A stretch of 60,938 nucleotides of DNA. Source: a virus. The position numbers were made by a program, and so were the translations under genes. The notes under the pieces are model-generated. The model saw only the letters and a list, made by a program, of their open reading frames with translations. It ran no database searches and was not told where the DNA came from. Of the stretch, positions 1 to 14,200 are shown in pieces (position 1 is the stretch's first letter; every line of letters begins with the position of its first letter). The DNA lies in IMG/VR virus record IMGVR_UViG_3300025577_000002; one strand, written 5' to 3'.

Positions 1-127
1 GCGAATTGGTTTCGCTGCAAGTACAAATTCGGGTTCCAACCTTTCATCAGACTTCATCGTGCAGACCGCATCATCAGGTACTCCAGCAGAACGTATGCGA
101 ATCGACAGCTCGGGCAATGTCGGGATT
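1..127. repeat. terminal overlap copy A (identical to 60812-60938)
   Basis: Direct comparison shows nt 1-127 (gcgaattggtttcgctgcaag...aatgtcgggatt) repeated verbatim at the window end. This implies a circular or circularly permuted unit of 60,811 bp. 127 nt is a common assembler k-mer length. Confidence 0.9.
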
Positions 128-1288
128 GGCACGAGTTCTCCGAGTTCTGCATTAGAAGTAGTGGGCGGAGGGTCACTAGGGTCTGGATTTACACAATCAA
201 GAAGCGGGCACCCCACATTTGGCATTACCAATGGCGGAACTGATAGTGTTTATTTTTCCATAGCACCCGACGGTGGGTCTCAGCAAACATTTATGCAGGT
301 GCGCGATGATAATACGGACGTAAACTCGATAGCATTCAGCACGTCTGGATCGGAGAGAGTAAGAATCAACAGCGCGGGAAATGTCGGGATTGGTACGACC
401 TCTGCCACTGAGAAATTGTATGTTAATTCAACAAGCGGCGATGCGCGAATAGGCATTAACGCACCTACTGGCAGTGATACCGAAATAAAGTTTTCAAATA
501 ATGGATCTGTTGAATACTCTATTGGGCATGATGACAATACTGATAATTTTGTCATTGGTACAACAAACGTAGACAATCCAATATTGAGCGTTACTAAAGC
601 TGGCAATGTCGGGATTGGTACGAGTTCACCGGGAAATAAGTTTGTAGTCGCTGAAGGAACAAACCAGCATGGGGTAGAGATTGTACCCGGTTTCCTCAGC
701 TACATCCAAGCCTACGACAGGGCTACCTCCGACTACGGTGATCTAAAAATAGATTCCAAATCAATTGCTTTTGGGACTAATAATGGCTCGGAGCGTATGC
801 GAATCCAAGCAAACGGCGTATTATTGGTTGGCACTACTACACAAGGAGGCGTTGATGGTTGGACCTTATATCCGGCTGGTTCTGGAGCAGCACCCCTGCA
901 AGTGTTTAATAAGTCAAATACAAACTCGACTATTGCATTTAATTTTGAAGTTAATTCGTCTACTGTTGGTCAGATTACTTACCTTAGCACCGGGACTAAC
1001 TATACATCAATATCTGATGAACGACTCAAAGAAAATATCACTAACGCTGATGACGCGGGAAGTTTGGTGGATTCTATTCAGGTCCGCAAATTTAATTGGA
1101 AAGTTGATGGGTCCAGCCAAGACTACGGCGTGATTGCACAAGAGCTTGTTAAAGTTGCACCAGTAGCTGTTTCAGTGCCTGAAAACCCAGAAGACATGTT
1201 GGGTGTGGATTACGCAAAGCTTGTCCCAATGCTTATCAAAGAAGTTCAATCATTACGAGCGCGGGTTGCTGCGCTTGAATCAATTTAA
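2..1288 (+). CDS. tail fibre protein, C-terminal part with S74-type intramolecular chaperone (auto-cleaving) domain
   Basis: This is ORF track 59-1288, but the frame is open from nt 2 and joins the 58752 ORF. C-terminus ..YTSISDERLKENITNADDAGSLVDSIQVRKFNWK..IAQELVKVAPVAV..VDYAKLVPMLIKEVQSLRARVAALE matches the S-D-x-R-x-K chaperone-of-endosialidase signature (Ser codon 1013-1015). Confidence 0.85.
   Translation, partial: RIGFAASTNSGSNLSSDFIVQTASSGTPAERMRIDSSGNVGIGTSSPSSALEVVGGGSLGSGFTQSRSGHPTFGITNGGTDSVYFSIAPDGGSQQTFMQVRDDNTDVNSIAFSTSGSERVRINSAGNVGIGTTSATEKLYVNSTSGDARIGINAPTGSDTEIKFSNNGSVEYSIGHDDNTDNFVIGTTNVDNPILSVTKAGNVGIGTSSPGNKFVVAEGTNQHGVEIVPGFLSYIQAYDRATSDYGDLKIDSKSIAFGTNNGSERMRIQANGVLLVGTTTQGGVDGWTLYPAGSGAAPLQVFNKSNTNSTIAFNFEVNSSTVGQITYLSTGTNYTSISDERLKENITNADDAGSLVDSIQVRKFNWKVDGSSQDYGVIAQELVKVAPVAVSVPENPEDMLGVDYAKLVPMLIKEVQSLRARVAALESI
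92..145 (+). repeat. 54-bp perfect intragenic repeat of tail fibre (copy 1; partner 60417-60470)
   Basis: cgtatgcgaatcgacagctcgggcaatgtcgggattggcacgagttctccgagt is identical at both positions. Diverged copies lie near 355-400, 595-640, 59990, 60217 and 60603. Confidence 0.9.
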
Positions 1289-1302
1289 TTAAGGGAAACA
1301 CT

Positions 1303-1638
1303 ATGACCACATTCAACTGGACAATCTCAACACTAGAATACGACGTGCAGCCCGCCGATATGGAAGGCTGCGTTGTAACAGCCCATTGGCGGTGTAGTGC
1401 AACAGACACAGTGGCCGAAGTGGCCTATAATGCCAGTAGCTACGGCACCTGCGGTTTCTCGTCTGACCCGTCGGCCCCGGGCTATATCGCCTACGCGGAC
1501 CTGACGGAAGCAGATGTTTTGAGCTGGTGCTGGGAAGACGGCATCGACAAAGACGCTACGGAAGCCTCGTTGCAAGCTAATATCGACCTACAAATCAGCC
1601 CCGTAACGGCCAGTGGCACACCGTGGGCTACCGCTTAA
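1303..1638 (+). CDS. hypothetical protein downstream of tail fibre
   Basis: 111-aa ORF with ATG 14 nt after the fibre stop. No recognisable motif. Its position suggests a fibre accessory or assembly role. Confidence 0.5.
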   Translation: MTTFNWTISTLEYDVQPADMEGCVVTAHWRCSATDTVAEVAYNASSYGTCGFSSDPSAPGYIAYADLTEADVLSWCWEDGIDKDATEASLQANIDLQISPVTASGTPWATA

Positions 1639-1666
1639 CTAACCCCTAAAACGAGAGGAGATCAAC

Positions 1667-1885
1667 ATGTCCGAGAAAAAAACAAAGACTATTGCGATCA
1701 ACGGCACTGAGTACACCGAAGACCAACTGACCGATCAGCAAAAGGTTATCATTAACCATGTTGGCGATCTTGATCGAAAGATCAATTCTACCCAGTTTAA
1801 TCTGGACCAGTTAATGGTAGGCAAGCAGGCGTTTGTCGATATGCTTACCAAGTCTTTAGAAGAACCAATCGACGATAACGAGTGA
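1667..1885 (+). CDS. hypothetical protein (72 aa)
   Basis: ORF preceded by gagaggag RBS. Acidic, helical-looking sequence. Confidence 0.5.
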   Translation: MSEKKTKTIAINGTEYTEDQLTDQQKVIINHVGDLDRKINSTQFNLDQLMVGKQAFVDMLTKSLEEPIDDNE

Positions 1886-1941
1886 TAAAGTTCTTGCCGC
1901 ACGAGTTGCGGCGCGACTTATACCGCAACTAGGAGAACACC

Positions 1942-2103
1942 ATGGAACCTTTTTCAACAATTTACATCTTGGCTACATCTGTAGTGACGATCTGTTCGAT
2001 CGTCGCCAACTACACTGACACACCCAAAGATGACGCCATCGTAGCCAAAGCCTATAAGGTAATGGAAACATTCGCATTCTTGCGAAATAAAGCAAAAGAC
2101 TAA
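1942..2103 (+). CDS. small membrane protein, holin candidate (53 aa)
   Basis: Not in the ORF track (under 60 aa). AGGAG lies at 1931-1935. Translation is MEPFSTIYILATSVVTICSIVANYTDTPKDDAIVAKAYKVMETFAFLRNKAKD, with one N-terminal TM segment and a charged tail. It sits next to the endolysin-like gene. Confidence 0.45.
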   Translation: MEPFSTIYILATSVVTICSIVANYTDTPKDDAIVAKAYKVMETFAFLRNKAKD

Positions 2104-2118
2104 AATGTAGGAGATACG

Positions 2119-2352
2119 ATGGACATGGGCTTATTGTGGAGTGGGGTGCTTACCGTCATTCTAGGAGTGATAAGCTGGGCACTGCGCAGTTTCCTAGCCG
2201 AGATGCAGCGAATCCAGATCCTACTCAACAGAACCCGAGAAGAGATGGCGCGCGAGTATGTCACTAAAGCTGAGGTTAACACCGACATAGACAGGGTGCT
2301 GGATCGTCTGGATCGATTAGACGAGAAGCTAGATCGCCTCATGGCCCGATAA
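2119..2352 (+). CDS. membrane-anchored coiled-coil protein (holin or i-spanin-like, 77 aa)
   Basis: AGGAGA RBS upstream. N-terminal TM segment (LLWSGVLTVILGVISWAL) followed by a charged heptad-like region (DRVLDRLDRLDEKLDRLMAR). Confidence 0.5.
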   Translation: MDMGLLWSGVLTVILGVISWALRSFLAEMQRIQILLNRTREEMAREYVTKAEVNTDIDRVLDRLDRLDEKLDRLMAR

Positions 2353-2513
2353 TGGGGGACGTTAGCATACTTGAAATAATTCCAGCAATTTGGCCCATCG
2401 CAGTGGGCTTTGTTGGTTTGATTTTCTGGCTGGCGAAGAGCTACGCGGACATCGAGACTCTTAAAGAGAAAGTAAAAGTCCTCTACGACCTGTACAATAA
2501 AGACAAGAAGTAA
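2352..2513 (+). CDS. small membrane protein (53 aa), lysis-cassette member
   Basis: Not in the ORF track. Its ATG overlaps the previous TAA (TAATG). Translation is MGDVSILEIIPAIWPIAVGFVGLIFWLAKSYADIETLKEKVKVLYDLYNKDKK, with one TM segment and no Cys, so it is not a lipoprotein. Confidence 0.45.
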   Translation: MGDVSILEIIPAIWPIAVGFVGLIFWLAKSYADIETLKEKVKVLYDLYNKDKK

Positions 2514-2529
2514 GCAATCTGGAGTTGAT

Positions 2530-2985
2530 ATGAGTTTAAAGCGCGACGAATGGCCAGCTAAAGCGATTGGATTTATGGCTGATGAAGTTATCGAGATGGC
2601 TCAAGAGATCCGTAAGATCTGCAATACCGCGATGGTGCCAAGCCCTGACCCGGAAGCCCATGTGCGTTTCACCGGTGGATCTAGTCTCCATTGTGTCGGC
2701 GCTGACGGCGGACTCAAATCGCAGGCCACAGATCTGTTCCTGCTCGACAATTCAGCATCCGCAAGGGTCTGGGCAGCAGTTCAATCTGTCGCAGGCGTTG
2801 GTGGCTTTGGTATGTATTTTGACACGCATCTTGGTGGCGAGAAACAGGTGCTAATCCACGTTGATACTCGTACCGAACGGTTACTGTGGCTGTGCCCAGA
2901 TGAGCCTAAGCGCAGATACGTTTATTACAATAACAACCCAGTTTATTTCCTGAATCTGTTATCTAAAGAGCTGGCCAAGCTATGA
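2530..2985 (+). CDS. peptidase M15-like zinc peptidoglycan peptidase (endolysin candidate)
   Basis: ..SSLHCVGADGGLKSQATDLF.. and ..GGFGMYFDT..VLIHVDTR.. resemble the H-x(n)-D ... GG-x-G-x-Y ... H-x-D metal-ligand pattern of M15A/VanY-fold phage endolysins. It directly follows three small TM proteins. Confidence 0.55.
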   Translation: MSLKRDEWPAKAIGFMADEVIEMAQEIRKICNTAMVPSPDPEAHVRFTGGSSLHCVGADGGLKSQATDLFLLDNSASARVWAAVQSVAGVGGFGMYFDTHLGGEKQVLIHVDTRTERLLWLCPDEPKRRYVYYNNNPVYFLNLLSKELAKL

Positions 2986-3037
2986 TACTGACCGGCCTTG
3001 AGGCGTTTGTCGACGGCCCCCACTTTGAATTGCGAGG

Positions 3038-3253
3038 ATGCTGATGAAAACCTTAGTAACTGCACGAGACGTTGACTCCGGTGTCGAACCGACCCACACG
3101 ATAGAAGTTATCTGTGCGAACTGCGAATACGACCTAGATGAATCTGAGATATCAGCCGATACTTGTGCTGATTGCGGGCAACCGCTTAATTTAAAGCAGA
3201 GTGTGACCCTCGCGATTACCTCTCTCCCGCCAATATTTGGCGACGCTACGTAG
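3038..3253 (+). CDS. zinc-ribbon protein (CxxC...CxxC)
   Basis: 71-aa ORF containing ..CANCEYDLDESEISADTCADCGQ... The alternative ATG at 3044 has better GAGGA spacing. Confidence 0.45.
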   Translation: MLMKTLVTARDVDSGVEPTHTIEVICANCEYDLDESEISADTCADCGQPLNLKQSVTLAITSLPPIFGDAT

Positions 3254-3261
3254 GTGCCCAC

Positions 3262-5118
3262 ATGCCTCTTCAAAAGATACTATTTAAACCCGGTGTAAAC
3301 CGGGAACGTACCAGCTACTCCAACGAAGGTGGTTGGTATGAATGTGACAAAGTTCGGTTTCGTCAAGGCTTACCAGAGAAAATTGGTGGTTGGGAGCGTA
3401 TATCGAGCACTACCTACCTAGGCGTATGTCGGTCTTTGTGGAATTGGGTTACGTTAGGTAGCATTAACTTACTCGGTGTGGGTACCAACCTAAAGTTTTA
3501 CTTAGAAGAGGGTGGCGGCTACAACGACATTACACCGCTACGCGCCACTACCGCTGCGGGGGATGTAACCTTTGCGGCTACAAATGGTAGCGCGGTACTG
3601 ACTATATCCGATGTTGGACATGGAGCTACCGCAGGAGATTTTGTTACTTTCAGTGGCGCAGTGTCTCTCGGGGGTAACATTACCGCAGATGTGCTCAACC
3701 AAGAATATCAAGTTGATGCGCTAATCGACTCCAGCAGCTACACAATAGTAGCGGTAGCTACTGCGAACGGGTCTGACGTAGGCAACGGTGGGAGTTCAAC
3801 AGTAGGCGCGTACCAAATCCATGTCGGTGCTGCATACGCAATCCCACTTTCTGGTTGGGGCGCGGGTACTTGGGGCGGCGGCGTTTGGGGTACGGGACTG
3901 GTATCAACAGAGAGTATCCGCCTGTGGAGCCAAGCTAACTTTGGTGAGGATCTAATCTTTGGCCCTCGTGGTGGTGCCATGTATTATTGGGACGCGACGG
4001 CAGGTACAGGATCTCGCGCGACGCTTCTAACAGGTTCAGGCATCCCGACAAGCCAGAACTTAATCGAGATCTCTGACATCAGTCGTTTTGTGTTTGCTTT
4101 CGGTGCGAATGAGCTTTCTTCTGCCACCCTAAACCCAATGCTTGTGCGCTGGTCGGACCAAGAAGATCCTACAAACTGGACCCCCGCAGCGACAAACCAA
4201 GCAGGTAGTATAGTTTTATCGCGGGGCACGATGATCGTGGCCGCCAAACAGTCGCGCCAAGAGATCCTTGTTTGGACTGATTCTGCCGTATACTCCTTAC
4301 AGTACGTAGGAGCACCTGTTGTTTGGGGCGCACAATTAGTAGGAGAGAACATATCCATAGCGAGCCAGAACGCTGTAGCCTATGCCAACGGTATCGCATA
4401 CTGGATGGGTAAAGATAAGTTCTACAAGTACGATGGGCGTACACAACCACTACCTTGTGACTTGCGTAGACACATATTCTCTGACTTTAACGTACAGCAA
4501 TACGACCAAGTATTTGCGGGTACCAACGAGTCTTTCCACGAGGTTTGGTGGTTCTACTGTGCCACAAACCAGACCGATATTGGTAAGTATGTAGTCTATA
4601 ACTACCTCGAAAATACATGGTATTATGGCACTATGTCTCGTACAGCGTGGCTAGATTCTGGGCTGCGTAACTTCCCGCTTGCTGCTACCTATAGTAATAA
4701 TCTGGTTAATCAGGAGTCAGGAACTGACGATAACGAAACGGCTACTACGCTACCGATTGCCGCGTCAATATCCTCATCGCAGTTTGACTTAGGCGATGGG
4801 CATCAGTTCTCGTTTGTATGGCGTATACTGCCCGACGTTACGTTCGTAGGTTCTACGGCGGCGGCTCCCGCAGCTACCATGACTTTGCTCCCGTTAGCGA
4901 ACTCAGGATCAGGGTATAACGACCCGCTATCGCAGGGGGGTAGTAGTTCTGGCACCGTAACACGTAGTACTGTGTTACCGATAGAACAGTACACAGGGCA
5001 GTTGAACACGCGTGTACGTGGTAGGCAGCTTGCAGTCAAGATCGAGTCTACTGGGCTGGGCGTTACATGGCAGTTCGGCACACCTCGCATAGATATGCGA
5101 CCGGATGGGAGACGGTAA
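3262..5118 (+). CDS. virion tail-associated structural protein (618 aa)
   Basis: Long ORF in the late arm. The N-terminus KPGVNRERTSYSNEGGWYECDKVRFRQGLPEKIGGWERI is a pattern I associate with podovirus tail proteins (from memory only). The body is Gly/Trp-rich and beta-looking. Confidence 0.5.
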   Translation: MPLQKILFKPGVNRERTSYSNEGGWYECDKVRFRQGLPEKIGGWERISSTTYLGVCRSLWNWVTLGSINLLGVGTNLKFYLEEGGGYNDITPLRATTAAGDVTFAATNGSAVLTISDVGHGATAGDFVTFSGAVSLGGNITADVLNQEYQVDALIDSSSYTIVAVATANGSDVGNGGSSTVGAYQIHVGAAYAIPLSGWGAGTWGGGVWGTGLVSTESIRLWSQANFGEDLIFGPRGGAMYYWDATAGTGSRATLLTGSGIPTSQNLIEISDISRFVFAFGANELSSATLNPMLVRWSDQEDPTNWTPAATNQAGSIVLSRGTMIVAAKQSRQEILVWTDSAVYSLQYVGAPVVWGAQLVGENISIASQNAVAYANGIAYWMGKDKFYKYDGRTQPLPCDLRRHIFSDFNVQQYDQVFAGTNESFHEVWWFYCATNQTDIGKYVVYNYLENTWYYGTMSRTAWLDSGLRNFPLAATYSNNLVNQESGTDDNETATTLPIAASISSSQFDLGDGHQFSFVWRILPDVTFVGSTAAAPAATMTLLPLANSGSGYNDPLSQGGSSSGTVTRSTVLPIEQYTGQLNTRVRGRQLAVKIESTGLGVTWQFGTPRIDMRPDGRR

Positions 5119-6251
5119 TGGCTTTAATTATTACTTCTGAAGAAGAGCTTAACCAGCTCGCACCGCCAGCATTACCGCTGGCTACAGAACAGTACAGTCG
5201 CCAATACCAAGACCAACTTAACAATGTTTTGCGTCTGTATTTTAACCGTATCACCGCCCTACAGCAGCAGTTAAGCTGGGGGCAGAGCGTTGACTATATA
5301 GATTTTTCGCTCACCACTGCGGCCCCCCATAAAACAGGGCGGGTAGACTGGGATCAAGATGATGCAACTCTTGAAATCGACATGGATTACGGGGTTGTAC
5401 AACAGGTAGGGCAGGAGACTTTCGTTCGGGTGCAAAACGAAACTGGGGTAACTATCCCTAACGGCACAGTTGTCGGTTCCGTTGATGCTTCCGATGACGC
5501 GCTAATAGTAACCCCATATATCGCCGACGGATCTCGGGATACCCTCTCTGTTTTGGGGGTTGTGACCCATGATTTACCCGACGCAGGTACAAAAGGGTAC
5601 TGTACTACTTTGGGGTTCGTGCGTGAGGTAGATACAAGCGCGTTCAGTCTGGGGGATGTCATTTATGCTTCACCTAGCACTGCCGGAGCTTTCACTAACG
5701 TCAAACCCACGGCACCCGCTAATGTCGTACCGATCGCGCAAGTGATTAAAGTAGGCTCTACTGACGGTATTATATTCGTTCGCCCCATCATCGAGCAACA
5801 AGAGTACTACGGCACATTCGTCCAAACCATAAGCTACACCCCTGCGGTAATAAACACTGCGTACGCAATTCCGTTTGACACCACTTCAATTGCCACCGGT
5901 TTCTCTATAGGTACCCCGACGTCTCGCATCGTCTCCGCTAATTCTGGGCTATATAGCGTGTCGGCCACATTGCAGTATATTAGCTCTAATGCGGCCAACA
6001 AGACTGTCTACTCATGGATCCGTAAGAATGGTACAGATATCGCCGACTCGTGCCGCATTATTGGCATCACGGGTAACGGCTCTTATCGCTCGGTGGTTGT
6101 CCACGAGTCAGTGTCTTTAGATCCCGGAGAATACGTAGAGATCATGTTTGCGGTAACAGACCTCAGCGTTACCCTCGTTGCCGTTGCACCAACTGCATTT
6201 GCCCCCGGCGCTCCCGGCACTAACTTGGTAATTGAGCAGGTACAGCAGTAG
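5118..6251 (+). CDS. tail fibre/receptor-binding-like protein with C1q/TNF-like jelly-roll C-terminus (377 aa)
   Basis: The true start is probably ATG 5118, overlapping the previous TAA (TAATG); the track ORF starts at 5067. The C-terminal about 130 aa (..FDTTSIATGFSIG..SGLYSVSATLQY..VYSWIRKNGTDI..LDPGEYVEIMF..) has the spacing of C1q-like receptor-binding heads. Confidence 0.5.
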   Translation: MALIITSEEELNQLAPPALPLATEQYSRQYQDQLNNVLRLYFNRITALQQQLSWGQSVDYIDFSLTTAAPHKTGRVDWDQDDATLEIDMDYGVVQQVGQETFVRVQNETGVTIPNGTVVGSVDASDDALIVTPYIADGSRDTLSVLGVVTHDLPDAGTKGYCTTLGFVREVDTSAFSLGDVIYASPSTAGAFTNVKPTAPANVVPIAQVIKVGSTDGIIFVRPIIEQQEYYGTFVQTISYTPAVINTAYAIPFDTTSIATGFSIGTPTSRIVSANSGLYSVSATLQYISSNAANKTVYSWIRKNGTDIADSCRIIGITGNGSYRSVVVHESVSLDPGEYVEIMFAVTDLSVTLVAVAPTAFAPGAPGTNLVIEQVQQ

Positions 6252-6266
6252 CCTACCATCTAACCG

Positions 6267-6278
6267 CTAACTAGTTAG
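6267..6278. repeat. 12-bp perfect palindrome CTAACTAGTTAG
   Basis: It uses the same CTAAC/GTTAG half-sites as the 17-bp early-arm motif, but everted. An extra CTAAC lies at 6260-6264. It is located just upstream of the putative promoter of the ACP-KS cassette. Confidence 0.6.
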
Positions 6279-6287
6279 GGTGCGAAG

Positions 6288-6315
6288 TTGCTCCTGCTAA
6301 CGTTTTGTTTATACT
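6288..6315 (+). promoter_or_regulatory. weak sigma70-like promoter candidate upstream of ACP gene
   Basis: TTGCTC (6288-6293), 16-nt spacer, TATACT (6310-6315), in the only sizeable intergenic gap (93 nt) of this part of the late arm. Confidence 0.25.
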
Positions 6316-6344
6316 AGAAAGTCCCTATTAGCAGGCGCGACAAC

Positions 6345-6662
6345 ATGACTAAATTGTTTGATTTCCTTGAAGTATTTAACGCCGTATCAGCGGCGCAGAA
6401 AGCAGTAACGGCAGATTATATTGTGGCCGAATCCCTTGATGTACCTATAACTGAAGACGCGACAAACCTCGACAGCCTAGATGTCACATTGATCTTCTTC
6501 GTACTAGGCGAAGCCTATGGTATTCCCGGAGGCGAGGAGATGGATGCGCTTTGGCCGATTAGCTCAATTGGTGCGCTGAATACCTTCTTGCAAGAGTACA
6601 AAACTAAAGACCCTGAGAGCGAATACGACAATGTTAAAGCCTTAGTTAAGGACTTATCATGA
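6345..6662 (+). CDS. acyl carrier protein-like (105 aa)
   Basis: ..EDATNLDSLDVTLIFFVLGEAYGIP.. matches the ACP D-S-L-D phosphopantetheine-attachment helix. The candidate is Ser44, codon 6474-6476. Size and acidity fit an ACP. Confidence 0.7.
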   Translation: MTKLFDFLEVFNAVSAAQKAVTADYIVAESLDVPITEDATNLDSLDVTLIFFVLGEAYGIPGGEEMDALWPISSIGALNTFLQEYKTKDPESEYDNVKALVKDLS

Positions 6663-7777
6663 TATACCTCACGAAATGCAATACCGTATGCACTACAGAA
6701 ACGAAGCTTATCGCGGACATCCCACACCCTCAACATGCGCATATAATCCCTGAGACATTTAGACGCGCTAAAAGCGGGATGAAGTACCCACCCCATACGC
6801 TTCTTGAAAGTCTGGTCGATGAAGACACCATTAGCTACGTACGAGACAACCCCGTGCAAGGTAAGACTGGGTTTATATTCGCTGCGGGTAACCAAGGCTG
6901 GATGGGTAACAACGGACGGTATGACAAGGATCCTGAAGCTGAACTGCATTACAAAGTAAAAGTACCCTTTATAGTCCTAACCAACATATATGCTGGCCGT
7001 ATCGCCAGTATGTTCGGGGTACATGACCATGTGTCAACAGACGCTAGCGCCTGCGCTTCCAGCTTAAAAGTCCTCATGGATGTACAGAACCTGATGAACA
7101 ATTTCGGGTTTGACCGCGTTATCGTGCTTACTGGGGAAGATGCCGTTAACAACCTGACGCTAGGGTTCTTTGGCGAAGCTGGAGCGAGTCTACAGTATAA
7201 AGACGAGACCGAACGACAGCCGTCGGCTTTTGACACTACAAATCAAGGGTTCTTTCTGGGGCAGGGTGCGGCGTTAGCTATATTTGAGAAGGAACATCCC
7301 GGAATGCCTACGCCGATGGCTAAATTTCTAGGGGCCTACACCTCCGCAGAGGACAACACAAACCCGTTAGGACAAAGAGCGGATGGATCGGGTTTTAGTA
7401 AAGCTATCGAAGGTGCATTATTTGTAGCCAAAGCACACCAAAATGAAGTAAGATTGGTGAAGACGCATGGAACTGGTACTCCAGTCAACAATGCTGCGGA
7501 AAAATCGGCACTATTGAATAGCTTAGACGAGTTTATTGCAACATCGTATAAACCTCGTATTGGGCATACTATGGGTGCGAGCGGCTTATTGGAGACTGGA
7601 TTGTTGTTAAAAGACCTGAAAAAAGGCTATGTGCCTAAAATCCTTAACAGAACGCAGGACGACCCTGTGTTCCTGTCTGCTGATGCCCCCGCTCCCGGAG
7701 GGCTAATGCTCAGTCTCGCCGCCGGTATGGGCAACATCTACTCCGCTGCCGTGTTTTCGCCGGAGGTAAGCTCATGA
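6659..7777 (+). CDS. beta-ketoacyl synthase (FabB/F or PKS KS-type, Cys-His-His), 372 aa
   Basis: DASAC132ASSL (Cys codon 7052-7054), KTH270GTGTPVNNAAE and SYK299PRIGH303TMGASG occur in canonical order and spacing. A C-terminal ..LSLAAGMGNIYSAAVF resembles the GFGG-N motif. The start overlaps the ACP stop (ATGA). Confidence 0.8.
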   Translation: MIYLTKCNTVCTTETKLIADIPHPQHAHIIPETFRRAKSGMKYPPHTLLESLVDEDTISYVRDNPVQGKTGFIFAAGNQGWMGNNGRYDKDPEAELHYKVKVPFIVLTNIYAGRIASMFGVHDHVSTDASACASSLKVLMDVQNLMNNFGFDRVIVLTGEDAVNNLTLGFFGEAGASLQYKDETERQPSAFDTTNQGFFLGQGAALAIFEKEHPGMPTPMAKFLGAYTSAEDNTNPLGQRADGSGFSKAIEGALFVAKAHQNEVRLVKTHGTGTPVNNAAEKSALLNSLDEFIATSYKPRIGHTMGASGLLETGLLLKDLKKGYVPKILNRTQDDPVFLSADAPAPGGLMLSLAAGMGNIYSAAVFSPEVSS

Positions 7778-8250
7778 ACCTCGTAGATAGTGCTGAAAAG
7801 CTACTAAAAGGCCCTGAAATTATTACTGGTGCTGTACACAATATGCCCGATATGGGGATACCCTTGCAAAGTGTATTAGCAGTTATAGCTGGAGAAACAA
7901 CACTCCCAAATACAGACATAGTTCAGGTAGGAAATACAGTATTCTTAGCACAAGTGGGTAAGGGGGAGAACCAACACAAGGCGGTGGGTAGAGCGTTCAA
8001 TATGGACACGGGACGAAACTTTGTCAAGAACGGGTTCAAGTACTTTAACTACCTACAGCAAAAAGGGTATACGCATTATTCGACTACCTTTGATAGCCTT
8101 GTGTTCTTAAACGCGTTTAAGATTTTCCAGCGCCGTGCAAAACAACAGGACACTGAGATTTATATAGGCGTAGTCGCTAAAGGCGCTGCGATGGACAAAT
8201 ACGTGGTCTATATGCGCTTAGGCACAGAACCGTTAACCCGAGGATTATAA
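7774..8250 (+). CDS. hypothetical protein (158 aa), third gene of ACP-KS cassette
   Basis: It has an ATGA overlap with the KS gene and stops 1 nt before the ATG of the 2143-aa gene. No recognisable motif. Confidence 0.55.
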   Translation: MNLVDSAEKLLKGPEIITGAVHNMPDMGIPLQSVLAVIAGETTLPNTDIVQVGNTVFLAQVGKGENQHKAVGRAFNMDTGRNFVKNGFKYFNYLQQKGYTHYSTTFDSLVFLNAFKIFQRRAKQQDTEIYIGVVAKGAAMDKYVVYMRLGTEPLTRGL

Positions 8251-11200
8251 ATGGCCGCCGTAGTAGAAGCCGCAGTCGATGTACTAGAATTCGCAATTGA
8301 AGAAGTCATTGTTCCCGTGGCCGAAGTCGCGGTTGACGCAGCAGTTACCGCAGTAGAAGCTGCTGCTGACGTAGTAGAATTCGTAGCTGAAGAAGTCCTT
8401 GTTCCCGTTGTCGAAACGATAGGTAACGTTGTGAAGCCTGTTGTAGAGGCCGTTGCGTGGGTAGGCGACACGCTTATCGGCAAACCGGTAGAGTGGGTAG
8501 TTGACGAGATCATCGAACCGGTCGCGGATTTTACGGTAGCAACAATCCAAGCAGCCCTAGACGATCCACTAGTTACGATTGCCAAAATAGCAGCTATGAC
8601 TACGGGCAACGCTTGGGCAATACCCCTAATCGACGGTGCAAAAGCTGCTGCTGACGGGGAAGAGTTTAGTGAAGTACTGAAGACTGTAGCTATATCATAC
8701 GCAGTCGGTAAGGTTGGCGCGACTGCGGCTAAAGTTGGCAGTAACGTTGCGGGTGCGGTTGGCGGTGACTATGTTGGTAAAGAACTAGTTACTAGTATCG
8801 TTTCAAAGGGCACCAGTAACGCCGCAGTGGCGGTTCTCTACGGTGAAGATCCGATGGAAGCCTTCGTAAAGGGCGGCCTAGATGTGGCAGTGTCCGCAAC
8901 TATGGGTTACATCGGGGAGAAGAACGGGTCTAGTGAATTTTTTGAGGATAATCCGGGACTAAAAGCGGTTCCGAACATCACCAGTAAAATTGTGCATGCT
9001 GGTATAGTAGCCGAGCTTACGGGGCAAGAAATAACTGGTGAGATGCTAGCGAATGCGGCGGCGAAAGGTCTCGTCACTACTAATCTAGTGACCGGCCTGA
9101 TGGCTGAAGATAGTACGCTTACTGACCGGGATATTGGGTACATCACCACTGCACTTCAGCGCACTGTAACGATGGCCTTCGATGGCACCAGCGGTGAGGA
9201 AGGGCTTGCAGCGTTTAACGGTATGATGAGCGCGTATGGTACCGAGGCTATGCACGAGGCTATTGACAACTCTAGCTTCGGTGATGCAGTCAACACCTCG
9301 ATGGACAAGCTGACGGGCGACTATGAGAAGGTAGAAAAAGCCGCTGACAACCTCGACGATGCAGTTTTAGCCCGTGATAACGCCGTTAAATCATACGAAT
9401 GGTTAGTTGATGACCTTAATGGGGATATGGACGACCTGAAAATTAAGCGTGCAGAATATGAAACTGCTTTCGCTGCGTATCAAGCGGCAGAGGGCGGCGG
9501 GAACACTACGGCAGAGTTTGAAGCTGCGGAGAAAGAGTACTTAAAAGCGGAAGCAGCGGTTGAGAAGAAGCATACCGATTACGCGCCACAGCTCGAAAGC
9601 TATAAGAAAAAAATAACTACTGCGCAAGATGACTTTGTAGGTTATGAGAAAGACTACGCCGACGCAGTGGCAAACTTGTCAGTTAGTTCTGAGCGGCTTA
9701 ACGAAGATCTATCGTCTGCGTACGCTGAGGCAGACCGTGCAGTTGTAGAAGTAATGGCTCCCGATTTCAACGAAGCCGAATATCGCAAAATCAATAACAT
9801 TCCTACGGACCAGAGCGCCACTGCGCACTACTTAACGACCGGGCAGCACGAATCCGCGTATGTTAGCGATGCACAGTACGATCAGGCAATGACAGAAAAA
9901 CGTCAGGTAGCGCTAACAAACGTTTTTGCAGCCGCAGGGGTGGATCCTAGCCTTCTAACTAAGGCGCAGCTAAAAGCTGTTTCAGACAATCTCGCTAGTA
10001 CTTATGACACCCCAGAAAAGCTTGATGCCTTTATAGCTAACCCACCCCCGGTGGCAGTGCCAACACCCTCGGCAGATGCTGTTGTTAACGAAGCTACACT
10101 TTCAGAAGGCACGACTTGGAAAGACGTATCCGATGGTAAGGCTGCCGTCGTAATTGATGAAGACGGTAACCGCGTGTGGAAAGATCTTTCTGCAACTACC
10201 ACTTCTTGGGATCCCACGAAGGGAAATGTTATAACCACGCGGTATTACGATAGCGAAGCTAACATATACAAAGAGTTTGTTAGCACTTCCGTATACTCTA
10301 CAGTAGATCAACTTAAGACAGGTCTCCCGACAGGTTCAACAGGTAAATATGATCCCGAAACAGGTAAAACGGTCTTTACCGGCCCCGACGGTAGTTGGGA
10401 AGGTGAGGCCAGTGCGTATAACTACACGGGGATAAACCAGTTAAACGCCGTAGAGACGTTAGAGATTGTTAAAGACCATGGTGCCGACATGGACAAAACT
10501 GGTTTTGTGATCGACTTTGTAACCAAGGCGCTGAACTTCTATAAAGAGACGGGTAGCGAAACCTCGATCAACACTGCGGCTAACATAGCTAAAGCGACGG
10601 GTGGGGCGCTTACTACATTTAACGGTGTCGTAGCACTTTTGGGTATCGCCCCACCGGATACCGCACTCGGTAAATTTGCAGAGACGTTGACTGGTCTTGG
10701 AGAGGACGCCAATACCCCTGCATATAAAGAAGCTCTAGCCGAAATGCAGACTATGATGGCGGTAGAGACAGATCCTGACGCCCCTTGGCAAGACCGCGCA
10801 TTCGCGAAAATGAAGGCTATTGGGGGCGCGATCGCGGAACATCCAGCGACGTTCTTCTCGGAATACATTCTGGTAGAGGCGGCGCAAGAACTCTTACCAC
10901 TAGCAGTAGGTGGCTTCGCTTCCCTTGGTGCTAAAGGCGTGGCACGTTTCGCAGGTTCGAGTGCTGCGGTCGCTAAGAAAATGGGTGCAAACGCCGGTTT
11001 GTCAGCGTCCCTTGTTACAGACATAACTGAGAGTTTTGGTGGTGCTGCCAGTGGTGCTTACGATACAGCCTTAGAAGTCGCCCTCGAAACCGGTATGTCT
11101 GACGTAGAGGCTAAAGCATATGCACTAGATCTAGCGGTTAAGGCGGGAACGGTACAGGCAGTTATAACATTGGGACTATCCGGTGTTGGTGGTCAGTCAC

Positions 11201-14200
11201 TTGAGAAAGCTGTACTTGGCGACCGCGCACCTAAAGTAGTGGGTGATAGCGTCCTATCCGATGTGATTGGCGCGATCGCTGATGGTGGTGAGATCTTCAT
11301 AAAAGAAGGTGTTTCAGAAGGTATTGAAGAGGGTCTTGCCACTACATATGTCGAATCCCAACTATATAAAATTGACCCGACACGTGACGTAGTTGGGGAG
11401 ATAGTCGCTTCATCTATGATGGGTACACTTATTGGTGGTCCCGTATCAGGGGGTGCCTATGGAGTAAGTAAGGCCGGAGACGTTGTATCCGTTACAAAGA
11501 ACGCGGCTGGAAAGTACGTATCGAGTACCGGCGAGGTGATAACTAAGCAAATCGTAAAAGTCGGCAACGCGGCGGCTCAAGGTGCAGGATATGTAAAGAA
11601 CTCAGCGGGGGAAATTGTAGCTGCAACGGGCGACATGCTATCTAACGCGCTCGTAACCCTTAACCCAAAAGTAAATGCGCTTGTAAAAGCTACCTTAGAC
11701 GCTGGTTCGACAGCGGCCTCTAAAGCAGCAGCTAAAACAAAACTGGCTGCGCTTGGTGTTAGTGACTACGTATTCAATAACATAATGAACATCGTTGACA
11801 ACAGCCAGTACACAAGCACTGCTGAGTCGTACGACGCGTTCACAACCGCAAATCCAGAATTTTCCCCCTCACAAACAGACATTGATGCCCTTGTAGGGTC
11901 CGTTAGTGATAGTGATCTTGCAACTCGTGCAGATGCATACATAGACCCGCTGTATACCGATTCGGCAGAAGCAGCTAGTTTGTTCATGGATACCTTCGGG
12001 TATAGTGCAACAGAAGCCGAAATCGAACAGTTCGTAGGTCAGACCCCTGAGACCGAGGTTGAAACGGCTATAGAAGCCTATGTTGACCCAATACAGACGA
12101 CTGAAGCAGAAGCTCGTGCGTTCTTTGCCGCGCTAGGATTCGAGCCTACCGACGCTGATGTCGCTAAGTTTGTAGGGCAGACCAGCGAAGCCGAATCGAA
12201 GGCTGCTATCGGTGTCTTTGTTGACCCTCGCCAGACGACTGAAGCTGAAGCACAAGCGCACTTTGACGCCCTAGGATATGATCCTACGGCTGACGAACTT
12301 GCTAAGTTTGTAGGTCAGGGAGATGCGGATTTTGCAACGTTACAAGAATCTGGGGTTGCTGCGTACGTTGACCCTCGCCAGACGACTACTGAAGAAGCGC
12401 AAGCGTTCTACGATGCCTTGGGGTACGAAGCAACAGAGACTGAGCTTGCTAATTTTGTAGGTCAGAAAGACGAAAAGGATCAGGAAGCGGCGATCGCTGA
12501 GTACGTTGACCCTCGCCAGATAACAGAAGCGGAAGCTACGCAGGCTCTGAAGGATCAGGGTCTAACCGACCCAACAGCCGAACAAATTGCGGAATTCATA
12601 GGGCAAGGAGAGGCAGACTTTGAAGCCTCCCAACGAGCTGACATGATCACGTTCGCTGATCCGCTGGTCACTGACTACGATGAAGCGAAAAAATACTTCA
12701 ACGACCTAGGCTTTACACCTACCAAGGCGCAGATTGACCAGTTCGTCGGGGCTACCTCAGAAGCTGAGCAGCAAAAAGCAATTGCAGCCTTCGCTGACCC
12801 ACTCTACACCGATGCAGGTGAGGCGAGAGAGTTCCTAGAAGCTCTGGGATACGATCCGACTGATGCTGAGGTTGCTCGTTTTGTAGGACAGGTTAAGGAG
12901 ACACAGCAACAAGAAGCCGTAGATACGTACGTCGATCCCCGCATGGTCACTGACGATGAAGTTACGGCGGCATATGCTGCGCTTGGCCTACCTCGACCCG
13001 CAGCTGAAGATATAGAAGCGCTTATCGGGCAGTATATGGAGACCGATCTGGCGGGACGGGCTGAAGGTAACCTACCCACTGCACGATATAACTCTATCAT
13101 TGCCATTATTGACGAGATGGGTGTGAGTATGGCAGGGGAAGATGGACTTTCTCCAGAAATGCAAGAATCGCTAGCTATTATCAAACAGACCATGATCGAT
13201 TCTCTCGGTGATTCTGGGCTTGCGGTTGCTGCGATTGACCAGTCTGTTGGAAGGCTCAATACCGCTATTGGTGCGGCGGCTACTGGGGGTACTGATACGG
13301 ATGCTCTGTACGAGTCTATCGATAGTGCAGTTCAGACTTTGCGTGACGCTGGTCTTACCGACGCACAGGTTGCAGAAACTATCAGTGAGACCTTTACAGA
13401 CTTTAGGGACTCTGGTAACGATGTATCTGGCTTAGCGGACATTTATGGTGACCCGGCAGATGGTGAAACCGCGTCTACGGGGCTGTATAACTTCCTCGAC
13501 GATACTATCGCTAAAGATCCAAACGAAGCTCCTGATGCCGATCTTGATGCCGATCCTGACGGTGATCCTACTGGTGATCCTACTGGGGATCCTACTTTTG
13601 ATAATGCTCTCCTAGGGAATCCGGCTGTAGCCGATGATCCGTCAACTCCCGACGTAGATGAGTCCCGCGACGCGACTGGCCTCTATGGGGCTATTGCTCG
13701 AAATGAGACTGCGGGGCAAGAACGCGACGAGGCTATTCGAAATGCAATTGCAGAGGTTGCTACTGACCTTGGAGACACAGAACAAAACATACTCGACCAG
13801 CTTGGTCTGACGCAAATCCAACTAGAGAACTCTATCGGGGATGCTGAGACCGCATTTAACGAGCGTATTGACAAGCTTTCCTCGGACGTCGCAGATGTGG
13901 AGACAAACCTCCGCGATGCTATAGATGAGAACGAGGCAGCGGGACTTAGTAGGGATGAGGCGCTTGCCAAGGCGATAGCAGATGTATCGACAGATCTTGG
14001 GCTTACTGAACAAGCGTTACTAGATCAGATAGGTTCCACAGAACAAGACTTACTAGCTGCACTAGCAGAAAGCGAAGCGACCATATCTGATGAGATCGAC
14101 GCGGTATCCGATCTAATTGGTAAAGCCGCTACCGAAGTGACGCAGGTAGACATTGACTTTGTTGCCGACCTTATTGCACAGACGGAAGTTGTAAATGAGC

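Follow-up and report, generated by a model that had tools for sequence, protein, structure and literature searches.

A predicted acyl carrier protein–ketosynthase pair, almost confined to phages, upstream of a GNAT-fold gene in an aquatic podovirus

Layout of the locus and the gap upstream of it

In this work, we analysed a locus in the genome of an aquatic podovirus at which the genes for an acyl-carrier-like protein (ACP), a ketosynthase (KS) and a GNAT-fold protein precede a giant gene; the window is the whole stretch of DNA that was analysed, 60,938 nt in length. All four open reading frames are present at the coordinates given in the first-pass annotation, and the two ATGA overlaps and the abutment of the GNAT and giant genes (TAA directly followed by ATG, 8250/8251) can be read in the sequence as it had described them. 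The codons that it had assigned to S44 (AGC) and C132 (TGC) are also correct, whereas the conserved lysine of the KS, given there as K299, is K298. The features of the locus are the following.

6267–6278, no strand: perfect 12-nt palindrome CTAACTAGTTAG, found once only in the window
6287–6300/6328–6341, + strand: imperfect inverted repeat, 14-nt arms, 86% complementary, 27-nt loop
6288–6315, + strand: sigma-70-like promoter candidate, -35 TTGCTC (6288–6293), 16-nt spacer, -10 TATACT (6310–6315)
6345–6662, + strand: ACP gene, 105 aa, pI 4.05, predicted divergent acyl carrier protein
6474–6476, + strand: codon of S44, predicted phosphopantetheine serine in the motif D43-S44-L45-D46
6659–6662, + strand: ATGA overlap of the ACP stop and KS start, predicted translational coupling
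6659–7777, + strand: KS gene, 372 aa, predicted FabF/FabB-class Cys-His-His decarboxylating beta-ketoacyl synthase
7052–7054, 7466–7468, 7550–7552 and 7565–7567, + strand: key KS codons C132, H270, K298 and H303, respectively, from the FabF alignment
7727–7729, + strand: codon of M357, which replaces the FabF gatekeeper Phe400
7774–7777, + strand: ATGA overlap of the KS and GNAT genes
7774–8250, + strand: GNAT-fold gene, 158 aa, pI 9.3, IVP-A-type
8251–14682, + strand: giant gene, 2143 aa, internal-virion/ejection-type by position and size

The gap in front of the ACP gene (6252–6344, 93 nt) had been called the only sizeable one in the late arm, which needs correction since a stretch of 276 nt at 2986–3261 is also without an ORF on the + strand. 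The palindrome that was said to lie in the gap is there and may be an operator; in the aligned upstream regions of related marine loci, the sequence TTAGCAACTyATAGTG occupies the same place. The weak promoter-like element that had been claimed for the gap fared less simply. It was not found by a consensus promoter scan of the gap, the -35 of the candidate matching at 3 of 6 positions only, and promoter-like sites in positions 1–9000 are not above chance, with 9 found and 11.2 expected. Comparison with relatives, however, speaks for the element: of 170 distinct upstream regions from related loci, 23 have TTGnnn-16-TATAnT ending 26–29 nt ahead of the ACP ATG, as against 8 of 3400 control windows, the spacer sequence being variable among relatives, and the candidate in the window ends 29 nt before the ATG. 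Among 14 KS-less loci that were examined, in which the genes overlap by TAATG, 13 are without this element (L195 is the exception). The inverted repeat, which overlaps the promoter candidate, stops 3 nt short of the ATG; its significance is doubtful, because no general excess of RNA folding is conserved in the upstream regions of relatives (median z -0.15).

The ketosynthase and its carrier protein

Based on profile matches and residue alignments, the product of ORF 6659–7777 is predicted to be a genuine Cys-His-His ketosynthase that is catalytically intact and N-terminally trimmed. It scores above the Pfam gathering cut-off of 20.8 bits with both PF02801 (1.9e-16, 60.6 bits) and PF00109 (4.5e-11, 43.3 bits), matches the NCBIfam fabF model at 1.6e-30, and finds FabF and KasA in the PDB with a best E of 3.5e-23. 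Superposition of Cys132, His270 and His303 on known catalytic residues had been set beforehand as the test that could refute the assignment; C132, H270, K298 and H303 were found to align with C163, H303, K335 and H340 of Escherichia coli FabF and with C171, H311, K340 and H345 of KasA, and T272 and T274 align with T305 and T307 of FabF. Among 149 KS relatives C132, H270, T274, K298, H303 and M357 are invariant (149/149). The description of the enzyme as short, with a divergent N-terminus, is likewise borne out: it is about 40 aa shorter than FabF at this end (372 vs 413 aa, with alignment gaps in its first third), and PF00109 is matched at profile positions 114–248 of 252 only, the N-terminal domain thus not being full-length.

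The relationship to FabF is a distant one. The identity to the E. coli enzyme is 24%, the loop that reads SFGFGG in FabF is AAGMGN here, and KS identity within the family is 52–99%, over contigs of 41–65% GC. A FabF (KAS II) orthologue was considered and rejected, with 106.1 bits against the TIGR03150 cut-off of 493.75 and a Met at the Phe400 position; a type II PKS minimal system was rejected as well, there being a single KS gene and no chain-length factor. The NCBIfam AmcF model also matches the KS (2e-24, positions 108–367 of 369), as does PigJ, although the FabF models outscore both of them.

This resemblance in length and profile coverage to the stand-alone ketosynthases of specialized metabolism raises the question of a small-molecule synthase. 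In that case, acetoacetyl- or 3-oxoacyl-ACP, or some other short product of beta-keto or polyketide-like type, would be formed by the pair. It would be released, or the GNAT protein would N-link it to an amino acid or to an amine, and in infection it would serve as a signal, an inhibitor or the precursor of a cofactor. The altered gatekeeper residue and the dedicated carrier would suit such a role, and the GNAT neighbour could resemble N-acyl amino acid or AHL synthases. We regard this reading as improbable, as a thioesterase, a chain-length factor, a cyclase and tailoring enzymes are all missing, no cluster-like context was seen in the approximately 280 loci examined, and the better scores of the FabF models point elsewhere.

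To judge from its homologues, the product of ORF 6345–6662 is predicted to be an acyl carrier protein, though a highly divergent one. The earlier ACP assignment holds through these homologues and through profile comparisons, but not through the window protein itself, for which, as for 21 close relatives, Pfam PP-binding (PF00550) gave no match even at E<=10. Among eight divergent homologues, PP-binding is the top Pfam match in six (E 3.4e-4 to 0.15), and one divergent homologue lies above the cut-off (21.2 vs 20.8 bits). When the family profile was compared with the PDB, 20 of 21 matches were ACPs or the ACP-type NodF, at E of about 0.03 and with DSLD in register, and hhalign against seven canonical ACPs gave a probability of 78% and an E of 1.8e-5. 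D43 and S44 are invariant in 155/155 homologues and L45 is found in 150 of the 155. In the AF2 model, which is of low confidence (mean pLDDT 57), a helix spanning residues 44–58 begins at S44, and the order of helices in this pLDDT-57 model fits that of an ACP plus an extra C-terminal helix. A fold search with this model gave nothing meaningful. The poor quality of the model (pLDDT 57) was counted as a point against the functional proposal made below.

The conservation of these residues bears on the idea that the pair is non-catalytic, the ACP-like protein and the KS sequestering host partners without forming a product or serving as an anti-defence factor. ACP serves as a binding hub for numerous host enzymes, the phage ACP is too divergent for Pfam and no PPTase is encoded; in addition, accessory genes of phages that bring a promoter of their own often serve takeover or counter-defence. 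Nevertheless, we give this idea very little credence, since the invariance of the KS catalytic residues in 149 sequences and of the ACP DS motif in 155 argues for retained chemistry, and the PADLOC models gave no match.

Distribution of the pair and its GNAT-fold neighbour

ACP–KS is an obligate pair found almost only in phages. The KS family is present in at least 538 IMG/VR contigs, compared with no more than about 8 MAG contigs in a set of 185,579 species genomes, and its carriers comprise hundreds of marine and freshwater podovirus contigs, distant kin of the cultured pelagiphages and roseophages. Immediately before the KS gene there is an ACP-like gene in all 152 viral loci with room for one and in 4/4 MAG loci, and the 4-nt ATGA overlap of the two genes is seen in 185 of 192 distinct related loci. 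No second KS-like ORF was found in the window or the related loci. As had been claimed, the accessory enzymes of fatty acid or polyketide synthesis are missing: in the other 62 ORFs scanned, Pfam recognized no PPTase, malonyl transferase (MCAT), KR, DH, ER or TE.

The pair is also an accessory one, which has been gained or lost repeatedly. It stands directly upstream of a GNAT gene in 124 of 130 loci, and the KS–GNAT junction does not exceed 10 nt in 172 of 176. Yet 24 of the 72 loci collected with the GNAT protein as seed have the GNAT-like gene without ACP–KS; on the GNAT tree, these loci are scattered over at least 7 separate positions, interleaved with KS-containing lineages. Conversely, in at least 7 loci the pair is found between an SNF2 helicase gene and early/replication genes, with no virion or GNAT genes near it. 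In one locus (L213) an ACP-like gene is followed directly by a GNAT-like gene and there is no KS, and in HTVC027P a glycosyltransferase gene occupies the corresponding site between the tail and ejection modules.

These observations alter three statements of the first-pass annotation. Expression of the pair with late rather than early genes is weakened as a claim, both by its sigma-70-like promoter candidate and by the loci with an early context. The term moron-like is apt for ACP–KS, which is patchy and has a conserved promoter-like element of its own that KS-less relatives lack, but not for the third gene. The three genes do not form one cassette, as the GNAT gene precedes the giant gene even where ACP–KS is absent. 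Correspondingly, a survey of the proposed order ACP–KS–158-aa gene–giant gene upholds the placement of the pair before GNAT (124/130), while the combination of GNAT and giant gene is found without the pair too.

The third gene had been described as an orphan, which it is not. Its AF2 model is confident (pLDDT 91.8), with the element order alpha1-alpha2-beta2-4-alpha3-beta5-alpha4-beta6-7 of a GNAT fold, and the top 50 PDB matches in Foldseek are all GNAT enzymes (probability 0.99–1.00, TM 0.41–0.54); the best of these are ordinary acetyl-CoA enzymes and not acyl-ACP-dependent ones. BFVD fold matches include an entry named internal virion protein A, and DUF2824. The family comprises about 293 representative clusters, and S6, G53, N54, D78 and N82 are invariant. 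Neither Pfam nor PHROG was found to have a family that covers the 158-aa protein, 37 family members gave no Pfam acetyltransferase match, and motif A (Q/RxxGxG/A) is not recognizable in the beta4-alpha3 loop, which by inspection reads N76-x-D78-T-G/A-x-N82. With or without ACP–KS, it is the GNAT-like gene that immediately precedes the giant gene, whose homologues follow it within 10 nt in 161/161 loci. The product of the giant gene probably has a role in ejection, judged from its position and size; its gene is the first large one of the operon, which continues with genes for proteins of 244, 276, 585 and 2235 aa, of which the 276-aa protein matches the PHROG family 'DNA ejection protein'. A small gene of the acetyltransferase family, IVP-A, heads the internal-virion-protein operon of podoviruses, downstream of the tail genes (PMC4819975). 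By modelled fold and by position, the third gene is predicted to be an IVP-A-type operon head that is separate from the ACP–KS module. The GNAT proteins of loci that lack ACP–KS keep the same invariant residues, and the core function of the GNAT protein is therefore likely to be independent of the phage ACP–KS.

The separate occurrence of the two modules brings in a further explanation, in which ACP–KS is a stand-alone module that acts, without involving the GNAT protein, on host type II fatty-acid synthesis, its position in front of the ejection operon being incidental. It might boost elongation or else choke it as over-produced FabF does in E. coli, tying up malonyl groups and FabD. This would agree with a pair that is self-contained in two unrelated contexts, including early/replication regions, that has a candidate sigma-70-like promoter of its own and needs host enzymes in any case, and with a GNAT gene that functions without it; moreover, it is routine to interpret the fabF and ACP genes of viruses as AMGs of fatty-acid metabolism (PMC10653327; PMC7029224; PMC11705849). 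On the other hand, a private and highly divergent ACP is not needed for boosting host synthesis, the KS is far from host FabF (106.1 vs 493.75 bits, 24% identity, the gatekeeper Met), the family is nearly confined to phages, unlike typical recently acquired AMGs, and the placement before GNAT in 124 of 130 loci is left unexplained. We consider this explanation possible, though on the unlikely side.

Proposed function and comparison with known systems

Our preferred explanation, which we put forward tentatively, is that two things are combined at this locus: a phage-specific ACP–KS module with its own promoter has been inserted before an IVP-A-type GNAT gene, and the GNAT protein may use its product. 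Most likely, host enzymes would help ACP–KS to build up a chain, acyl or 3-oxoacyl, on a carrier private to the phage. Host AcpS would modify S44 and thereby turn the phage ACP into holo-ACP, and malonylation would follow through host FabD or self-loading. C132 of the KS would receive an acyl primer from host acyl-ACP or acyl-CoA and condense it decarboxylatively with malonyl-phage-ACP, which would leave on the private carrier a 3-oxoacyl chain or, after reduction by the host, an elongated one. In most lineages the adjacent basic GNAT-fold protein would be the first enzyme placed to consume this thioester, moving the acyl group to an amine of a phage protein, for example the neighbouring giant ejection protein, or of a small molecule. 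The dependence on host enzymes is suggested by the genome being without PPTase, MCAT, KR, DH, ER and TE genes. That the function is a dedicated one, and the KS not a recently borrowed host gene, is suggested by the 24% FabF identity, the invariant gatekeeper Met, the trimmed N-terminus and an ACP beyond the reach of Pfam.

The link between carrier and GNAT protein is the less certain part. GNAT-fold enzymes that use acyl-ACP are established in LuxI, FeeM and the HlyC/ApxC family. The acidic ACP (pI 4.05) next to a basic GNAT protein (pI 9.3) was counted towards such a link, as were the adjacency in 124 of 130 loci, the junctions of 10 nt or less and the ACP–GNAT pair of L213. Against it were counted the 24 of 72 loci in which the GNAT-like gene has no ACP–KS beside it, the occurrence of ACP–KS in an early context without GNAT, the GNAT protein having neither motif A nor a Pfam acetyltransferase match, and its top fold matches being acetyl-CoA enzymes; furthermore, the adjacency could result from common descent or from a permissive insertion site between tail and ejection modules.

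The first-pass annotation had listed acylation of a virion or ejection protein among the possible roles. This is made less probable by GNAT and ACP–KS each occurring without the other; the GNAT neighbour keeps the idea in play. In its most explicit form, the IVP-A-type GNAT protein would be an acyl-ACP-dependent acyltransferase that lipidates the giant ejection proteins and so aids their insertion into the host envelope, ACP–KS would supply the (3-oxo)acyl donor, and phages without a KS would draw on the acyl-ACP or acyl-CoA of the host. Lipidation of ejection proteins is speculative, and we rate this form of the idea as something of a long shot. If it were true, it would give the long-enigmatic IVP-A (T7 gp13) class its first biochemical function and would be the first case of a virus making its own lipid donor for the modification of virion proteins.

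Whichever function applies, phage genes of this type, usually filed as generic lipid AMGs under 'fabF' or 'ACP', here form a distinct and nearly phage-confined family, and the ACP–KS pair is both widespread and uncharacterised. The coupled genes, the frozen catalytic residues and the altered substrate-gating loop point to phage-specific chemistry, and not to a borrowed housekeeping gene. The minimal KS of 372 aa, accompanied by a private ACP but by no further genes of a pathway, is also attractive to enzymologists as a minimal condensing system.

Several known systems share features with this locus. One is bacterial AcpP with FabF/FabB (KAS II/KAS I), likewise a small acidic carrier with a DSL serine and a Cys-His-His condensing enzyme. 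The phage KS differs in its 24% identity, the roughly 40 missing N-terminal residues and the Met at Phe400, and the phage pair in being ATGA-overlapped, without other FAS genes, with an ACP below Pfam detection and nearly phage-only. Free ketosynthases of about 370 aa with a carrier of their own are also known from cispentacin (AmcF) and prodigiosin (PigJ/PigH) biosynthesis, but compared with AmcF, PigJ and type II PKS systems the phage pair lacks AmcG or a chain-length factor, a cyclase and tailoring genes. LuxI, FeeM and HlyC/ApxC offer a mechanistic analogy, namely a GNAT-type fold, a possible acyl-ACP donor encoded by the neighbouring gene, and a basic protein opposite a carrier that is acidic; these enzymes are absent, however, from the 50 fold matches listed, and no sequence similarity was found to the phage protein, which also occurs without a phage ACP. 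With morons the pair shares its patchiness among close relatives, its own promoter-like element and its alternative insertion sites, whereas there is no terminator-like site after the KS on the + strand, the KS gene overlaps or abuts the next gene, the GC content is near that of the genome (ACP 44.7%, KS 48.8%, genome 49.4%), and the pair, far from being sporadic, is ancient and widely distributed.

Among viruses, fabF or ACP genes have been listed as lipid AMGs (PMC10653327; PMC7029224; PMC11705849), and automatic annotation similarly labels the present genes as 3-oxoacyl-ACP synthase and, in some cases, as acyl carrier protein. Those reports are single-gene listings without analysis, and in the literature on viral fabF and ACP genes we found no account of an obligate overlapping pair, a restriction to phages, an altered loop or a site in front of the IVP operon. 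A parallel to the third gene is IVP-A of podoviruses (T7 gp13, PF11090, and the syntenic genes of P22, epsilon15 and phiRIO-1-like phages), where an acetyltransferase-fold gene also heads the ejection operon (PMC4819975), and in T7 a promoter likewise lies just upstream of gene 13. T7 gp13, which itself matches PF11090 while the 158-aa family does not, has no detectable sequence similarity to this family (hhalign probability 0.4%), and the 158-aa gene is usually preceded by ACP–KS, a pairing that is unreported for IVP-A genes. It is this placement of a condensing module before an IVP-A-type gene that provides a testable handle on the function of IVP-A, a question that has stood since the days of T7 genetics.

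The carrier protein and the ketosynthase

An ORF scan delimited four genes at exactly the coordinates that the first-pass annotation had assigned to them:

6345-6662, + strand: ACP-like gene, 105 aa
6659-7777, + strand: ketosynthase (KS) gene, 372 aa
7774-8250, + strand: GNAT-like gene, 158 aa
8251-14682, + strand: giant gene, 2143 aa

The two ATGA overlaps and the TAA/ATG abutment between them are present in the window sequence, and the codons for S44 of the ACP (AGC, 6474-6476) and C132 of the KS (TGC, 7052-7054) had likewise been placed correctly.

The assignment of the second gene as a KS was borne out by both Pfam domains, by structural matches and by the aligned catalytic residues. PF02801 (1.9e-16) and PF00109 (4.5e-11) both scored above their curated cut-offs, the match to the latter, N-terminal model being confined to profile positions 114-248. 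FabF-type NCBIfam models matched at about 1e-30, yet far below their equivalog thresholds, and the closest solved structures are those of FabF and KasA (best E 3.5e-23). In the alignment with E. coli FabF, residues C132, H270, T272/T274, K298 and H303 correspond to C163, H303, T305/T307, K335 and H340; the conserved lysine, first read as K299, is K298. The N-terminal domain is about 40 residues shorter than that of FabF, and its C-terminal loop has AAGMGN in place of the SFGFGG of FabF, which puts M357 at the position of the gatekeeper Phe400. C132, H270, T274, K298, H303 and M357 are constant in the family (149 homologues, 126 distinct sequences). We conclude from these alignments that the KS is an active-looking Cys-His-His decarboxylating condensing enzyme and not a FabF orthologue.

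The ACP-like protein is, judging from profile comparisons, a real but very divergent carrier protein. The Pfam PP-binding model matched neither the window protein nor any of 21 close relatives, even at E<=10, and the missing signal could be settled only via divergent homologues. PP-binding was the top Pfam match for six of eight such members, which are tied to the family by its HMM (1e-13 to 1e-16), and one of them exceeded the gathering score. Searched against PDB sequences, the family profile gave 21 matches, of which 20 were acyl carrier proteins or the ACP-type NodF, at E values of about 0.03 and with DSLD in register. A profile-profile comparison with seven canonical ACPs gave 78% probability (E 1.8e-5) and serves as a lead only. 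D43 and S44 are constant in all 155 homologues, and the protein is acidic (pI 4.05). An AlphaFold (AF2) model built with 21 homologues was poor (pLDDT 57) and a Foldseek search with it returned noise, so that the ACP call is based on the profile evidence; the helices of this low-confidence model would nevertheless fit an ACP, one of them beginning at S44.

Distribution of the pair and of the GNAT-like gene

Relatives of the KS are plentiful in IMG/VR (on at least 538 contigs) and nearly absent from cellular genomes, with about eight MAG contigs among 185,579 species. In a KS-seeded set of 153 viral loci, which includes a divergent freshwater clade, the KS is immediately preceded by an ACP-like gene at all 152 viral loci with room for it, as it is at 4/4 MAG loci, and the two genes share the 4-nt ATGA overlap at 185 of 192 distinct loci. 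The KS is followed by the GNAT-like gene at 124 of 130 loci, and the latter lies within 10 nt of the giant gene at every one of 161 loci. The MAG bins carrying the KS family are taxonomically scattered; one long, high-GC contig with the ACP-KS pair is binned as a bacterial genome (Rhodocyclaceae MAG contig DASVZI010000184.1, 89.8 kb, 65% GC) and may be a prophage, a mis-binned phage or a true cellular copy.

The pair also occurs elsewhere. Six viral loci and one MAG locus have it flanked by an SNF2-type helicase gene on one side and by small genes of early or replication type on the other:

L108:6368-9397, early-context ACP-KS
L141:18-3011, early-context ACP-KS
L157:3021-6093, early-context ACP-KS
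also L104, L109, L115 and L142

The small genes code for a sigma-like protein (about 100 aa), a DUF3310-like protein and a PD-(D/E)XK nuclease. These contigs contain neither GNAT nor virion genes, and the phages, which belong to a different lineage, have little else in common with the window.

In the reverse test, a degenerate DNA pattern for two invariant GNAT motifs recovered 119 viral stretches. Among the 72 testable loci the KS lies directly upstream in 48, and the other 24 carry a strong GNAT-like gene without ACP or KS; the proposed three-gene cassette that would include the 158-aa gene is therefore rejected. The KS-less loci examined belong to the same broad phage group: the homologue of the 618-aa tail protein is 24-69% identical, and the 244-, 276- and 585-aa ejection genes are recognisable in several of them. 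They run from the tail protein through a small unrelated ORF and the GNAT-like gene to the giant protein, with TAATG overlaps between the genes. The small ORFs that replace the pair are not ACP-like, with the exception of L213, where a 96-aa ACP-like gene (GIDSLD, above the Pfam PP-binding cut-off) precedes a 198-aa GNAT-like gene (L213:1925-2822); this locus has no ketosynthase, ejection-type genes come next, and it is the only KS-free ACP-plus-GNAT arrangement among the loci examined. When 179 distinct GNAT-like proteins were arranged by neighbour joining, KS-less loci appeared at seven separate points of the tree, interspersed with those that have the pair, and the invariant GNAT residues are identical in both.

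The third gene had been described as an orphan. However, its product has a predicted GNAT fold and belongs to a family of 293 representative clusters, nearly all of about 150 aa, in an exhaustive profile search. The model (27 homologues, pLDDT 91.8) shows the GNAT order of secondary-structure elements, and all 50 PDB matches listed were GNAT acyltransferases (probability about 1, TM about 0.5). Its matches among viral structures included phage proteins that are close but uncharacterised (TM 0.84-0.90), together with a DUF2824 protein and an entry under the name 'Internal virion protein A'. S6, G53, N54, D78 and N82 are constant in the family, the Q/RxxGxG/A motif is unrecognisable, and no Pfam or PHROG model covers it; two distant GNAT-family members, P0329 and P0308, were not found in viral contigs. 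It has been reported that the internal-virion-protein (IVP) operon of podoviruses comprises genes A to D directly downstream of the tail-tube genes, and that IVP-A (T7 gp13) and syntenic small podovirus genes match acetyltransferases (Hardies et al., PMC4819975). By modelled fold and by position the 158-aa gene is IVP-A-type, which makes the locus an IVP operon with an accessory ACP-KS pair inserted ahead of it. Sequence homology was detectable neither to T7 gp13 nor to the 110-aa ORF that phage DSL-LC04 has at this site.

At the equivalent site, all three genes are missing from the cultured relatives DSL-LC04 and Pelagibacter phage HTVC027P. The latter carries a glycosyltransferase (gp80, L083:12465-13412) and several small ORFs in the tail-to-ejection interval, a boundary at which accessory enzymes, possibly modifying ones, may generally accumulate. 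The 394-aa gene upstream (window 5067-6251, compared with L167, L182, L184 and L238) is the most variable of the block (28-67% identity), its conservation often being limited to the first 60 or so residues; in KS-less relatives it is replaced by a short ORF resembling its N-terminus and a beta-rich one 107-111 aa long.

Within the 2143-aa protein, residues 1230-1595 (window 11938-13035) comprise eight tandem repeats, each 46-50 aa long (rough consensus YVDPRQTTEAEAxxxFxALGYxPTxAExxxFVGQ) and too diverged in DNA for Tandem Repeats Finder. Its first 50 or so residues hold an internal duplication (AVDVLEFAIEEVIVPV / AADVVEFVAEEVLVPV), and short 12-nt tandem repeats at 13530-13596 encode a DPDGDPTGDPTGDP stretch. 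Pfam gave nothing informative on the giant proteins except in the second one (2235 aa, window 18028-24735), where residues 1321-1459 match the LPD39 'large polyvalent protein' domain. Domains of this kind typically belong to proteins that phages and plasmids deliver together with their DNA.

Upstream region and host

A consensus promoter scan found nothing in the gap upstream of the ACP. A candidate promoter, TTGCTC-16 nt-TATACT, lies at 6288-6315; it belongs to a promoter-like element with a spacer of variable sequence that occupies a conserved position in 23 of the 170 distinct upstream regions of related loci, against 8 of 3400 control windows. KS-less loci lack the gap, and the element is absent from 13 of 14 examined, L195 being the exception. 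The moron-like character suggested earlier thus holds for the pair. No terminator was found after the pair, and in composition it is close to the mean of the genome. The conserved promoter-like element and the early-gene context in other lineages weaken the idea of an expression of the pair solely together with the late virion genes. Nor is the 93-nt gap the sole one in the late arm, since 2986-3261 is likewise without a + strand ORF. The gap showed no folding excess over shuffles, and Rfam gave no match on 5800-8600. A motif common to marine loci L006-L033 and L060, TTAGCAACTyATAGTG, lies about 10-25 nt upstream of the -35 hexamer, and at that position the window has the palindrome CTAACTAGTTAG (within 6263-6282); this site may be an operator or activator site of the ACP-KS promoter.

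Pfam matches in the early arm (24781-45462, minus strand) include a LuxR/GerE and sigma-70 region 4 HTH protein (24781-26010), a pentapeptide-repeat protein, DUF2201 metallopeptidase/VWA, an AAA ATPase, dUTPase, DNA polymerase A, a DUF927 primase-helicase and a Prim-Pol domain. Since no RNA polymerase family is among those listed (25 of the 28 matched), transcription is probably by the host RNA polymerase. No tRNA genes were found in the window, and PADLOC defence-system models gave no matches. SAR11 genomes are low in GC, and the 49.4% GC of the window makes a SAR11 host unlikely.

Possible function and relation to described genes

As first noted, the phage appears to encode no accessory fatty-acid (FAS) or polyketide synthase enzymes: a Pfam scan of 62 further ORFs found no PPTase, malonyl transferase, reductase, dehydratase or thioesterase, and therefore host enzymes must be used. 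In the proposed mechanism, host AcpS would activate the phage ACP at S44, malonyl would be loaded by host FabD or by self-loading, and the KS would join an acyl primer to malonyl-phage-ACP, so that a carrier private to the phage would end up with either a 3-oxoacyl or an elongated acyl chain. We tentatively favour, at somewhat less than even odds, a hand-off of this chain to the neighbouring GNAT-fold protein, which would N-acylate an acceptor, on account of the placement of pair and GNAT-like gene next to each other at 124 of 130 loci, the tight junctions, the complementary charges and locus L213, where a GNAT-like gene follows an ACP-like one with no KS. The main evidence against it is that ACP-KS and GNAT units each occur independently. 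This independence leaves room for a stand-alone takeover of host FAS by the pair, which we regard as a rather less likely but serious alternative, and also for a small-molecule role, which seems improbable.

In the literature searched we found no description of an obligate overlapping ACP-KS pair or its phage restriction, nor of the altered gating loop or the association with an IVP-A-type gene, and a paper on AMGs of HTVC023P-type pelagiphages makes no mention of these genes. In automatic annotation these proteins already carry the label KS or, for some, ACP, and viral fabF and ACP genes have been listed as lipid AMGs in virome papers.
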